DNA of 64,000 nucleotides from Escherichia coli (GCF_003334355.1 NZ_QOWP01000012.1), one strand, 5' to 3'. Shown: positions 2,147 through 20,970, counted from the stretch's first letter. The notes: generated by a model from the letters alone, not told the origin. Program-made: numbers and translations.

Positions 2147-2809
2147 TTAAATCGACGTTCTGCCAAACGCTCCCTGCCAGTCCTGCTCAAACTTCGCCAC
2201 AGCGGCTTCCACCGCCGGATAGCTAATCATCTGTTGTGCCACATCCAGTGGCAGAGTAATTGATTCACATCCTGCCAGTAAGCAGTCCAGCGCCTGACGC
2301 GGGGTTTTGAAACTCGCTGCCAGCACTTTCGCCTGCGGCGCATGCATTTTCAATAACTGGTGTAAGTCGGTCACAGTCTGAATGCCGCTACCGCCCTGAG
2401 CATCAATACGATTAACGTAAGGCGCAACATATTCCGCACCTGCCAGCGCCGACAGCAGCCCTTGTGCTGCGCCATATACCGCGGTTCCCAGCGTTGGAAT
2501 CCCTTCCGCTTTTAACATCTTAATAGCTGCCAGCCCCTCGGCGGTCACCGGAACTTTCACCACGATATCCGCAATAATAGAACGCAATTTACGTGCGTCA
2601 TTCACCATCCCTTCAGCAGTGGTAGCCATTACCTGGGCAAACAGACGCCCCTGACCGCCCATCGCTTCATGAAGTTGCGGAAGCACAACATCCAGCGGTT
2701 TTTTACCCGCGGCGATAATGCTTGGGTTAGTGGTCACACCCGCCAGCGGAAAAATACGTGACAGCGCCTTCACCGCAACAACGTCTGAAGTATCCAGATA
2801 CAGTTCCAT
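2147..2809 (-). CDS. fsaA: Fructose-6-phosphate aldolase 1
   Basis: Translation from internal Met ([10 protein letters not shown]...) gives 220 aa, recognised as FsaA; the ORF-track N-terminal extension is not used. Confidence 0.9.
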
Positions 2810-2912
2810 AACCATCCTCAAAATGTACTTTTTGTCTGAATGTAGACTATCACGGGAAAACTCTCTGAACAGTTGACGCACATCAATCTAACTTTCATTC
2901 GAAAGTATTTTA

Positions 2913-3839
2913 ATGCTTGAACGAAATAGAGAGGCAACTATGATTTTCAATATTCAGCGCTACTCGACCCATGATGGCCCCGGTATCCGCACGGTCGTAT
3001 TTCTTAAAGGCTGTTCGCTGGGCTGCCGCTGGTGTCAGAACCCGGAAAGCCGCGCCCGCACGCAGGATCTGCTGTATGACGCACGACTGTGTCTGGAAGG
3101 CTGCGAGCTGTGCGCTAAGGCCGCGCCGGAAGTGATTGAGCGCGCGCTGAATGGTTTGCTTATTCATCGGGAAAAGTTAACCCCGGAGCATCTGACGGCG
3201 TTAACCGACTGCTGTCCGACACAGGCATTAACCGTGTGTGGTGAAGTGAAAAGCGTTGAGGAGATCATGACGACCGTTCTGCGCGATAAACCGTTTTACG
3301 ATCGCAGCGGCGGCGGTTTAACGCTTTCGGGTGGTGAGCCCTTTATGCAGCCGGAAATGGCGATGGCGCTACTGCAAGCCAGCCACGAGGCAGGCATTCA
3401 TACTGCGGTAGAAACCTGTCTGCATGTGCCGTGGAAATATATCGCCCCTTCTCTGCCCTATATCGATCTGTTTCTTGCCGATTTAAAACACGTTGCCGAC
3501 GCGCCGTTTAAACAGTGGACCGACGGTAACGCCGCCAGAGTGCTGGATAACCTGAAAAAACTCGCCGCAGCGGGCAAAAAAATCATTATCCGCGTGCCGC
3601 TGATTCAGGGCTTTAATGCCGACGAAACCTCTGTAAAAGCCATTACCGATTTTGCCGCCGACGAGCTGCACGTTGGCGAAATTCATTTTCTGCCCTACCA
3701 CACGCTGGGCATCAACAAATATCACTTACTTAATCTGCCCTATGACGCCCCGGAAAAACCGCTTGATGCGCCAGAACTGCTCGACTTTGCCCAGCAGTAT
3801 GCCTGCCAGAAAGGGTTAACCGCGACCTTACGAGGATAA
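2913..3839 (+). CDS. ybiY: Glycyl-radical enzyme activating enzyme (radical SAM, PflA-like)
   Basis: 308 aa ORF with radical-SAM CxxxCxxC (CSLGCRWC) and extra Cys clusters; sits immediately upstream of the glycyl radical enzyme gene. The start could instead be the internal Met at about 2940. Confidence 0.85.
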
Positions 3840-17395: not shown

Positions 17396-18043
<648 letters not shown>

Positions 18044-18064
18044 ATCCATCGCTGATGGTGCAGA

Positions 18065-18110
18065 ACTTTAGTACCCGATAAAAGCGGCTTCCTGACAGGA
18101 GGCCGTTTTG
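18065..18110 (+). terminator. Putative dps terminator hairpin
   Basis: Imperfect GC stem (GGCTTCCTG...CAGGAGGCC) followed by TTTTGTTTT. Confidence 0.45.
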
Positions 18111-18258
18111 TTTTGCAGCCCACCTCAACGCACTTATTTAGTGCATCCATCTGCTATCTCCAGCTGATTAAGTAAATTTTTTGTATCCACATCATCACAC
18201 AATCGTTACATAAAGATTGTTTTTTCATCAGGTTTTACGCTAAATAATCACTGTGTTG

Positions 18259-18392
18259 AGTGCACAATTTTAGCGCACCAGATTGGTGCCCCAGAATGGT
18301 GCATCTTCAGGGTATTGCCCTATAAATCGTGCATCACGTTTTTGCCGCATCTCGAAAAATCAAGGAGTTGCAAAACTGGCACGATTTTTTCA
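18259..18392 (+). promoter_or_regulatory. glnH control region: NtrC-type palindromes and sigma-54 type promoter
   Basis: GCACCAGATTGGTGC palindrome near 18275 to 18289 and TGGCAC-N5-TTTCA near 18377 to 18392, upstream of glnH. Confidence 0.55.
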
Positions 18393-18431
18393 TATATGTG
18401 AATGTCACGCAGGGGATCGTCCCGTGGATAG

Positions 18432-19193
<762 letters not shown>

Positions 19194-19195
19194 TA

Positions 19196-19290
19196 ACGCT
19201 ACACCTGTAAAACGCACTGGCAGTTCCCTCTCCCCTATGGGGAGAGGATTAGGGTGAGGGGCGCAAACCCGCTCCGGGGCCATTAATTAC
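19196..19290. repeat. GC-rich intergenic hairpin repeat (box C-like) between glnH and glnP
   Basis: CCCTCTCCCCTATGGGGAGAGG inverted repeat followed by GGGTGAGGGGCGC; resembles the box C class of E. coli intergenic repeats as I recall it. Confidence 0.45.
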
Positions 19291-19331
19291 CCTGAATTTG
19301 ATTATTTACACCACGGTAACAGGAACAACAT

Positions 19332-19991
19332 ATGCAGTTTGACTGGAGTGCCATCTGGCCTGCCATTCCGCTTCTGATTGAAGGTGCCAAAATGACCCTG
19401 TGGATTTCGGTCCTCGGTCTGGCAGGCGGTCTGGTAATCGGATTGCTGGCAGGTTTTGCACGCACCTTCGGAGGTTGGATAGCCAACCACATCGCGCTGG
19501 TCTTTATTGAAGTGATCCGCGGCACACCTATCGTCGTCCAGGTGATGTTTATTTATTTCGCCCTGCCGATGGCGTTTAACGACTTACGCATCGACCCATT
19601 TACTGCGGCGGTGGTCACCATCATGATCAACTCCGGCGCGTATATTGCGGAAATCACGCGTGGTGCGGTGCTGTCTATCCACAAAGGTTTTCGTGAAGCA
19701 GGACTGGCGCTCGGTCTTTCACGTTGGGAAACCATTCGCTACGTCATTTTACCGCTGGCACTGCGTCGTATGCTGCCGCCGCTGGGTAACCAGTGGATCA
19801 TCAGCATTAAAGACACCTCGCTGTTTATTGTGATCGGCGTGGCGGAACTGACCCGTCAGGGGCAAGAAATTATTGCCGGTAACTTCCGCGCCCTTGAGAT
19901 CTGGAGCGCCGTGGCGGTGTTCTATCTGATTATTACCCTGGTGCTGAGCTTTATTCTGCGTCGTCTGGAAAGAAGGATGAAAATCCTGTGA
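19332..19991 (+). CDS. glnP: Glutamine ABC transporter permease
   Basis: 219 aa hydrophobic ORF; overlaps glnQ start by 4 bp. Confidence 0.9.
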
Positions 19992-20710
19992 TTGAATTTA
20001 AAAACGTCTCCAAGCACTTTGGCCCAACCCAGGTGCTGCACAATATCGATTTGAACATTGCCCAGGGCGAAGTCGTGGTGATTATCGGGCCGTCCGGTTC
20101 CGGTAAATCGACCCTGCTGCGCTGCATCAACAAACTGGAAGAAATCACCTCCGGCGATCTGATTGTCGATGGCCTGAAGGTTAACGATCCGAAAGTTGAC
20201 GAGCGCCTGATTCGCCAGGAAGCAGGTATGGTGTTCCAGCAGTTTTACCTCTTCCCGCATCTGACGGCGCTGGAAAACGTCATGTTTGGCCCGCTACGCG
20301 TGCGTGGCGCGAACAAAGAAGAGGCGGAAAAACTGGCACGTGAGCTGCTGGCGAAAGTCGGTCTGGCAGAACGTGCACATCACTACCCTTCCGAACTTTC
20401 TGGTGGTCAACAGCAGCGTGTGGCGATTGCCCGCGCGCTGGCGGTGAAGCCGAAAATGATGCTGTTTGATGAACCGACTTCCGCTCTTGACCCGGAACTG
20501 CGCCATGAAGTGCTGAAGGTTATGCAGGATCTGGCTGAAGAAGGGATGACGATGGTGATCGTGACCCACGAAATCGGTTTTGCCGAGAAAGTAGCTTCGC
20601 GGCTGATCTTTATCGACAAAGGCCGGATTGCGGAAGATGGCAATCCGCAGGTGTTGATCAAGAACCCGCCGAGCCAGCGCTTGCAGGAATTTTTGCAGCA
20701 CGTCTCTTAA
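19988..20710 (+). CDS. glnQ: Glutamine ABC transporter ATP-binding protein
   Basis: 240 aa ORF with Walker [10 protein letters not shown] and LSGGQQQR signature. Confidence 0.9.
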
Positions 20711-20714
20711 TAAG

Positions 20715-20830
20715 ACACATTGCCTGATGCGCTACGCTTATCAGGCCTACAGGATATCTGGCAACTTATTAAAATTGCATGAACTTGTAGGACGGATAAG
20801 GCGTTCACGCCGCATCCGGCAAAAAAGCCC
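20715..20830. repeat. REP/BIME repeat cluster
   Basis: GCCTGATGCGCTACGCTTATCAGGCCTAC and GGATAAGGCGTTCACGCCGCATCCGGC units after glnQ. Confidence 0.7.
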
Positions 20831-20970
20831 GCACGTTGTCAGCAACCTGCTTAATATCCCTTCCTCCCTTTCACCCGAAAGGGAGGCACACCAGATTCCT
20901 CTCATTTAAAATCGCCCCTCCTCCAGCATCTATACTTATCTTTTTGCTCTATTTTCTCACTGGAGGAGTC

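Follow-up and report, generated by a model that had tools for sequence, protein, structure and literature searches.

The glnHPQ operon of Escherichia coli carries a strong hairpin between the gene for its glutamine-binding protein and the gene for its permease, and the question raised by this locus is what kind of element forms the hairpin and whether it acts on the messages on either side of it. We analysed the locus in a stretch of E. coli DNA of 64,000 nucleotides (hereafter the window, with positions counted from its first letter). A sequence-only reading of the window had placed here a GC-rich hairpin repeat of the box C class, rather than REP, and had suggested that it stabilises the upstream mRNA.

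The glnH-glnP spacer and its hairpin

The glnH-glnP region of the window is a base-for-base match to E. coli K-12 MG1655. From the open reading frames and the RefSeq annotation of the identical DNA, the following genes were placed on the plus strand: glnH (18447..19193), which is the first gene of glnHPQ and encodes the periplasmic glutamine-binding protein, the permease gene glnP (19332..19991), glnQ (19988-20710) and ybiO. The window also contains dps on the plus strand, at about 17540-18043. The glnH stop at 19193 and the glnP ATG at 19332 leave a spacer of 138 nt (19194-19331), which is the length that had been claimed for it. No sigma-70-like promoter was found in the spacer by a consensus scan, which counts against an internal glnP promoter of that type. 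Two open reading frames were set aside: one of 166 aa on the minus strand (18783-19283), rejected as a gene as antisense to glnH, and one of six codons (ATGGGGAGAGGATTAGGGTGA, 19237-19257), dismissed as trivial.

Within the spacer there is a perfect 9-bp inverted repeat, CCTCTCCCC / GGGGAGAGG (19227-19235 / 19239-19247), with a 3-nt loop and a C.A mismatch at the tenth stem position. This is the strong hairpin which had been described from the sequence, the string CCCTCTCCCCTATGGGGAGAGG quoted at the time lying at 19226-19247, with ATTA next and then GGGTGAGGGGCGC at 19252-19264. The predicted folding energy of the hairpin RNA is -18.3 kcal/mol (z = -2.83), a value reached by 0 of 200 dinucleotide shuffles, and that of the complete spacer is -45.2 kcal/mol (z = -2.52). 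The check proposed by the sequence-only reading was to fold 19194 to 19292; the 99-nt stretch as delimited reached only z = -1.15. It is less striking because its 3' boundary cuts off part of a second predicted RNA helix, in which a region around TTACCCT, discussed below as the remnant of a partner repeat, pairs with 19249-19257 (span 19249-19296). The MFE structure predicted for the full spacer also pairs CCUGU (19204-19208, just 3' of the glnH stop) with ACAGG (19319-19323); this predicted pairing is of 5 bp only, overlaps the glnP Shine-Dalgarno sequence and encloses the BoxC module, and the CCUGU partner of ACAGG is within the E. coli-specific segment.

We scanned the window for potential triplexes using the purine-motif triad rules C.G*G, T.A*A and T.A*T. 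The 64 kb contain a single strong three-block pyrimidine-purine-purine motif, at 19226-19261 (10 triads, 1 mismatch, 3/3 loops), which has no counterpart among 20 shuffles, and this stretch satisfies the sequence rule for a triplex. The quoted 22-mer was matched at up to 3 mismatches by 0 of 100 shuffles and no further copies were found in the 64-kb window. A search of Rfam over 18000-20500 gave nothing near any gathering score; BoxC has no Rfam family.

The element is a BoxC repeat

Judged by its sequence, the glnH-glnP hairpin element is a type A repeat of the BoxC family (also PIT, TMECO), and its membership is secure because the identities of both core and flanks fall within the range of accepted members. 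BoxC, for which later papers cite Bergler 1992 and Bachellier 1999, is 56 bp long and has 32 copies in E. coli, and it was found again, with 22 copies, by an HMM screen (Petrillo 2008). The PIT ("potential intrastrand triplex") elements are described in later work as its rediscovery by Hoyne and Maher 2000, and TMECO is its characterisation by Holder et al. 2015 (PMC4666352). The core pattern is CCCTC(G/T)CCCC-N3-GGGGAGAGGG-(TTA/CCG)-GGGTGAGGGG (PMC4666352) and the type A consensus is CCCTCGCCCCTTTGGGGAGAGGGTTAGGGTGAGGGG (Holder 2015, PMC4666352).

At 33 of the 36 positions of the core the window copy has the base of the type A consensus, the differences being T6, A12 and A23, and the similarity reaches into the family flanks, which bears out the earlier choice of box C over REP. 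We retrieved the 23 MG1655 copies in Table 1 of Holder 2015 and aligned them with their flanks. Against the family consensus the window copy scored 69% identity across 68 columns, and 84% in the 32 columns that are best conserved; the corresponding ranges for the accepted MG1655 members (n = 23) were 60-85% and 84-100%. The spacer contains no REP-like GCCGGATG...CTAC palindrome, and both the GCC(G/T)GATG...CATC(C/A)GGC consensus and the GTAG/CTAC tag are missing; real REPs are present after glnQ. Directly after this gene, two inverted REPs (BIME) were seen on the plus strand at 20722-20750 (GCCTGATGCGCTACGCTTATCAGGCCTAC) and 20787-20820 (GTAGGACGGATAAGGCGTTCACGCCGCATCCGGC), and glnHPQ therefore carries BoxC inside and REPs at its end. 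A 68-nt query was run against all 5426 complete E. coli genomes, and the number of similar places in a genome had a median of 15. Neither an unstable structure nor a single-copy motif was thus encountered, since the hairpin is stable and the motif is repeated.

All parts of the element are given for the plus strand. The 5' flank AAAACGCACTGGCAGTT (19209..19225) is homologous to the family flank gcgcacggacaGTC by comparison with the 23 MG1655 copies. Block 1, the pyrimidine arm CCCTCTCCCC (19226..19235), contains the 5' hairpin arm and was delimited by the inverted repeat, the fold and the triad scan. Loop 1 (19236..19238) is TAT in the window, and TAT, TCT or GCC in E. coli alleles. Block 2, the purine arm GGGGAGAGGA (19239..19248), contains the 3' hairpin arm and has A19248 in place of the consensus G. 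Loop 2 (19249..19251) is TTA, the type A signature, and block 3, GGGTGAGGGG (19252..19261), is a mirror repeat of block 2 and the third strand of the potential DNA triplex. Having T for G at core position 6, the window copy therefore has a mismatch-free stem. Downstream of the element, the AU-rich stretch GAATTTGATTATTTA (19294..19308) is predicted by the whole-spacer fold to be unpaired. It includes GA|AUU (19294-19298), which we take to be an RNase E-like RN|WUU site. The spacer ends with a conserved module, CACCACGGTAACAGGAAC... (19309..19331), which contains the glnP Shine-Dalgarno AGGA (19321-19324) and, just 5' of it, a putative GlnZ pairing region.

In MG1655 the window copy lies at 847,190-847,225 on the minus strand. 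It is missing from Table 1 of Holder 2015, which has no entry near 847 kb (PMC4666352), and the text of the supplements to that paper does not mention glnH or glnP. We also observed an extra degenerate BoxC in MG1655 at about 632,060-632,098, downstream of cstA (reverse complement CCCTCGCCCCACCGGGGAGAGGGTTAGGGTGAGAGGG), which is likewise missing from this table. With the 23 listed copies and the two unlisted ones (847 kb and 632 kb), MG1655 therefore holds at least 25 copies.

The window element is intergenic, and the BoxC consensus matches just 5 of 50,697 phage records. Other MG1655 copies are found in all kinds of intergenic context, and a position after a binding-protein gene is not a general property of BoxC. 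In a plasmid collection 517 records matched the consensus, among them records of Rhizobium, Sinorhizobium and Azospirillum with an identity of 80-90%; several of the top plasmid-record matches are multi-megabase and resemble chromosomes filed as plasmids. An inverted BoxC pair was also seen downstream of glnQ in Enterobacter sp. kpr-6 (locus 2585-2661), and BoxC therefore occurs outside Escherichia.

A probable truncated pair with a conserved stem

The window element appears, from its alignment, to be a truncated inverted BoxC pair, of which the type A copy is left and the type B partner is lost. Inverted pairs of type A and type B are found in MG1655 at fepB-entC, ygfF-gcvP and alx-sstT. In the window, a linker (19262-19286) and TTACCCT (19287-19293) follow block 3 (together 19262..19293, plus strand, from the alignment with paired MG1655 copies and the fold). 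TTACCCT stands at the same 25-nt offset at which the inverted partner starts in the MG1655 pairs, and the linker is similar. A hand count on the alignment gave 21 matches to the alx-sstT pair in 32 positions, and the similarity ends after TTACCCT.

The element is essentially fixed in the E. coli population, with the locus kept in 5401 of 5426 genomes (≥ 95% identity over ≥ 80% of the 401-nt query). In E. coli FORC_042 (locus 2652-3356), an IS26 transposase gene was seen to replace glnP between glnH and glnQ, and the glutamine permease of this strain is probably inactive because both the BoxC spacer and glnP have been lost. We defined alleles over 19218-19285 and found that four of them account for 5226 of the 5426 genomes (96%), with the 9-bp stem intact in all four. 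The third block is intact in the K-12 type allele (loop TAT, 2338 genomes) and in the loop TCT allele (1544 genomes), and is damaged in an allele with loop GCC and GGGTGAAGGG (999 genomes) and in one with a 1-nt deletion in block 3 (345 genomes), which has O157:H7 and O145 strains among its top matches. Damage to the third block thus extends to 1344 genomes, about 25%, and three loop versions occur across the alleles. At glnH-glnP it is the hairpin that persists rather than the triplex third strand, and the third G-block seems dispensable at this site.

This bears on a DNA-level explanation of the element, by which a single-stranded Y-R-R intrastrand triplex acts on replication, recombination, genome stability or polymerase stalling. 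The window copy satisfies the triad rules, which are rules of sequence only. Near-identical oligonucleotides fold in vitro into stable triplexes (Tm 70-82 C, by CD and NMR), polymerase was stopped in primer extension and TMECO loci are reportedly more rearranged among E. coli strains (PMC4666352); a G-quadruplex was excluded by NMR for the DNA oligonucleotides (Holder 2015, PMC4666352). However, when a single TMECO site was examined by in vivo DMS footprinting it showed no protection of the kind a triplex would give (PMC4666352), and purine-motif triplexes do not form in RNA (Holder 2015 introduction, PMC4666352). At our locus, moreover, 5401 of 5426 genomes keep the sequence in place, the damage carried by a quarter of them falls on the third strand and not on the stem, and BoxC copies of opposite orientation give the same RNA-end geometry (see below). 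We regard a triplex role as highly improbable, because the locus is stable, the third block appears dispensable and the geometry of the RNA ends is independent of orientation.

An RNA 3' end at the foot of the hairpin

We compared the locus with the curated MG1655 list of 3' ends obtained by Term-seq (Adams et al. 2021, eLife, Supplementary file 1), after calibrating the layout of the table on the thrL entry (50 nt, end nucleotide, 10 nt). A 3' end is present at 847,200(-), which is window 19251, in all three conditions (Adams 2021), with 30,332 reads in LB at OD 0.4, 130,459 in LB at OD 2.0 and 42,295 in M63, and it is among the stronger ends of the neighbourhood. Position 19251 is the A of ...GGGGAGAGGAUUA, the last nucleotide of loop 2; it lies 4 nt past the last stem pair and ahead of the third G-block, and block 3 is beyond the in vivo RNA 3' end. 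An end 4 nt past the hairpin in three conditions supports the earlier suggestion of a stabilising structure after the binding-protein gene, and an intercistronic stabilising hairpin would be recognised by what is seen here, a stable stem-loop after glnH at whose foot RNA ends in vivo.

The same end geometry was found, in either orientation, at other BoxC copies with mismatch-free stems: downstream of ppiC, where the end at 3,959,467(-) has 28,044 reads and lies 4 nt after the stem, at lldD (3,781,065(+)) and at hrpB (164,636(+)). At the copy near 632 kb, which has a G.A stem mismatch, the end is 11 nt after the hairpin (632,098(+)), and the G.A-mismatch copies after adk, tauD and zntA have no end in the curated Term-seq list.

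A 3' end of this kind could come from partial termination or attenuation, with RNA polymerase stopping at the BoxC hairpin in some rounds and giving a glnH-only transcript. The precision of the end and its closeness to a strong hairpin agree with this, as does the presence of a hairpin followed by a T-run at this position in many genera (CAGGGGCG..CGCCCCTGCTATTTTT; CTCAGAGG..CCTCTGTTTT); because so many other genera hold such a structure, the ancestral device may have been an attenuator. In E. coli, however, no U-tract follows the stem (AUUAGGGUG), and a consensus scan of the plus strand found no terminator-like site in the spacer. Intrinsic terminators usually release 7-9 nt after the stem, and the end here, at 4 nt, is nearer than that. 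In addition, no Rho-dependent region is called in the spacer (Adams 2021 Supplementary file 2), and PIT elements had no terminator activity, according to the account of Hoyne and Maher given in PMC4666352. Direct termination is less likely because of this 4-nt distance and the lack of terminator activity of PIT elements, and we consider attenuation an improbable source of the E. coli end.

Trimming provides another source. Steady-state 3' ends just after U-less stem-loops are left when transcripts are trimmed by RNase II and PNPase as far as a protective structure (Dar and Sorek 2018, PMC6061677). Like these protective stem-loops, the BoxC hairpin has terminator-like energy, no U-tract and an end a few nt downstream; it differs from those of Rho-dependent transcripts in that its end is operon-internal and its spacer is without a Rho-dependent region, and the upstream event at the BoxC end is more likely to be an endonucleolytic cut than Rho termination. 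The end of the operon, at window 20890, is a classical Rho case. There a 3' end at 845,561(-), in the M63 list only (29,295 reads), lies 4 nt after a hairpin downstream of glnQ (CCTCCCTTTCACCCGAAAGGGAGG, 20863-20886, plus strand), and a significant Rho-dependent region is called at 845,551 (p = 5.6e-9; Adams 2021). Window 20863-20890 is thus the probable end of glnHPQ, one that depends on Rho and is trimmed to the hairpin. The triplex scan weakly flagged this region on the minus strand (8 triads, 1 mismatch).

Two further Term-seq ends were observed upstream of glnH. One, at 848,057(-) (window 18394), lies 53 nt upstream of the glnH start and 2 nt past a sigma-54-like box (TGGCACGATTTTTTCA, 18377-18392, plus strand), and may reflect a roadblock, or attenuation, in the leader of glnH. 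The other, at 848,340(-) (window 18111), falls within 18081-18116 (plus strand), where a weak Rfam match to ctRNA_p42d (26.9 bits, E = 0.0046, below gathering) coincides with the dps terminator hairpin and T-run; this match is most likely just terminator-shaped.

The same spacer in other species

We scanned for GlnP in one genome per species and obtained 80 loci, 79 of which had spacers that were delimited and analysed, the window included. All 79 spacers have a strong hairpin, with the best single hairpin ranging from -15 to -38 kcal/mol (median -21), and the MFE z-scores of the spacers have a median of -2.57, with 75% below -2 and none above 0. These hairpins are non-homologous. The importance that had been attached to the position after the binding-protein gene is therefore upheld, as a strong, sequence-unrelated hairpin is present here in every orthologous spacer examined.

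BoxC itself was found in only two of the 79 spacers, in the window and in one divergent Escherichia lineage (E69). The glnP of E69 is 95% identical at the DNA level, its BoxC copy is nearer to the consensus (GGGGAGAGGGTTA) and its 5' flank reads GCGCACGGACAGTC. E. albertii, E. whittamii and strain SCPM-O-B-8794 (labelled E. coli) have another hairpin, GCCCGGCAG...CTGACCGGGC. In 30 spacers the palindrome is REP-like and ends in a CCGGGCCT(A/G)C tail; REP-like palindromes hold the spacer in Enterobacter, Citrobacter and non-coli Escherichia. When the Enterobacter version was compared with plasmid records by BLAST, it was multi-copy in Enterobacter and Klebsiella records, for example with 9 places in 518 kb. 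The spacers of Kosakonia, Buttiauxella, Cedecea, Atlantibacter and others contain a terminator-like structure, a G+C stem of short length and then a T-run (CAGGGGCGnCTTTCGCCCCTGCTATTTTT), and Klebsiella and Raoultella have long palindromes together with CTCAGAGG..CCTCTGTTTT. The 232-nt spacer of Serratia sp. H1w contains an ERIC/IRU-like palindrome, CCCCAGGAGCTTAC...GTAAGTGACTGGGGTGAG. It resembles an E. coli sequence listed at 127,845 which we take to be the ERIC consensus. The shortest spacers (78-88 nt) have terminator-like stems, which were not recognised as belonging to a repeat family.

Escherichia, Citrobacter and Salmonella hardly differ in the last ~25 nt of the spacer (CACCACGGTAACAGGAAC...ATG). 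It is next to the glnP Shine-Dalgarno sequence that GlnZ, an sRNA from the glnA 3'-UTR, pairs and represses glnP (Walling 2022 preprint; Miyakoshi 2022). The spacer is modular, with a variable hairpin slot followed by a conserved Shine-Dalgarno/GlnZ module, because the slot is filled by unrelated hairpins while the 3' module is nearly invariant. Non-homologous hairpins have been swapped at this site.

Such swapping could also be expected if BoxC were a neutral repeat in an insertion-tolerant spacer and the RNA 3' end a by-product of any stable hairpin, without a selected effect. The site holds at least four unrelated palindromes across taxa, of which three belong to families of dispersed repeats; intergenic DNA receives palindromic repeats in any case, BoxC is found in every kind of intergenic context and the K-12 copy is degenerate and truncated. 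Earlier functional work points the same way: by the account in Holder 2015 (PMC4666352), the tests by Hoyne and Maher of PIT elements were negative, detecting neither promoter nor terminator activity, nor any effect in vivo, and TMECO showed no positional bias hinting at regulation (Holder 2015, PMC4666352). Against a neutral origin of the pattern, a strong hairpin is kept in 79 of 79 spacers, including those of 78-88 nt, the stem is intact in the alleles covering 96% of genomes while the loop and third block vary, and the 847,200(-) end is among the stronger ones nearby. We consider neutrality unlikely to be the full explanation, though it is a serious partial rival.

Discussion

By analogy with known stabilising palindromes, we think it likely that the BoxC hairpin, apparently what is left of a BoxC pair, is a 3'-exonuclease barrier which stabilises the glnH mRNA. 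BoxC would have replaced an older spacer palindrome in a common ancestor of E. coli and one or more sister lineages. Transcription of glnHPQ would run through the spacer, and an endonucleolytic cut in AU-rich 19294-19308, a candidate entry point, would remove the part downstream of glnH; alternatively, entry may be provided by breakdown of the glnPQ part, set off for instance by GlnZ. PNPase and RNase II, moving 3' to 5', would stall at the 9-bp G+C hairpin, and because of this a stable glnH mRNA ending ...GGGGAGAGGAUUA-3' would be left and the binding-protein message would outlast the glnPQ message. We infer that the end is made by trimming, that the hairpin is its cause and that GlnH is raised relative to GlnPQ as a result. 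In line with discoordinate regulation of the operon, a pulse of GlnZ in Salmonella lowered glnP and glnQ more than 4-fold, and glnH is not among the genes quoted as lowered (Miyakoshi 2022). Term-seq counts are semi-quantitative, and an abundant 3' end could be a long-lived decay intermediate without benefit. Further points against a stabiliser are that BoxC copies with the G.A mismatch have no curated 3' end even behind adk, which is expressed, and that the predicted second helix (19249-19296) would need to be degraded before trimming.

The element shares with the BoxC/PIT/TMECO family its three-block CCCTCnCCCC-N3-GGGGAGAGGG-TTA-GGGTGAGGGG core, type A loop and flanks; the family is likewise intergenic and multi-copy, and sometimes occurs as inverted pairs of type A and type B. 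It differs in having T for G at core position 6 and A for G at 23, in lying inside an operon and being unlisted by Holder, and in coinciding with an abundant RNA 3' end, whereas the family has been given no role in expression in print. The REP/BIME stabilisers of malE-malF and hisJ-hisQ (Newbury et al. 1987, as cited in later papers) are similar in that a stable palindrome follows a binding-protein gene and an RNA 3' end lies at the foot of the palindrome. The window element is unrelated to them in sequence, with neither the REP consensus nor a GTAG/CTAC tag, and carries in addition a G-block in mirror repeat; stabilisation has been measured with REP, and for BoxC it is drawn by analogy. Intrinsic attenuators between binding-protein and permease genes occupy the same place and presumably also give an excess of binding-protein message, but the E. 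coli element is without a T-run and failed the terminator scan.

Much of the setting is already known, since the element family was described in the 1990s, the strain is the reference strain and the mechanism is of a classical type. In the BoxC and Term-seq literature cited here, we did not find it stated that perfect-stem BoxC copies mark RNA 3' ends, that BoxC took the place of a REP-like palindrome in the slot for a hairpin that is conserved beside the GlnZ site, or that the window copy is absent from the latest published list. A bolder proposal, which we put forward tentatively and think less probable than not, is that perfect-stem BoxC forms a second class of RNA 3'-end-protecting palindrome, evolutionarily interchangeable with REP, ERIC and attenuator hairpins, and that at glnH-glnP it would serve as a decay insulator sparing glnH while GlnZ destroys the glnPQ message.

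For 30 years BoxC has been regarded as functionless or as an instability-causing DNA triplex motif. Precise in vivo ends at several perfect-stem copies would give a concrete RNA-level role to a repeat for which none had been found earlier, and the glnH-glnP spacer offers a natural system in which to ask whether any strong hairpin uncouples the expression of a binding protein from that of its permease.
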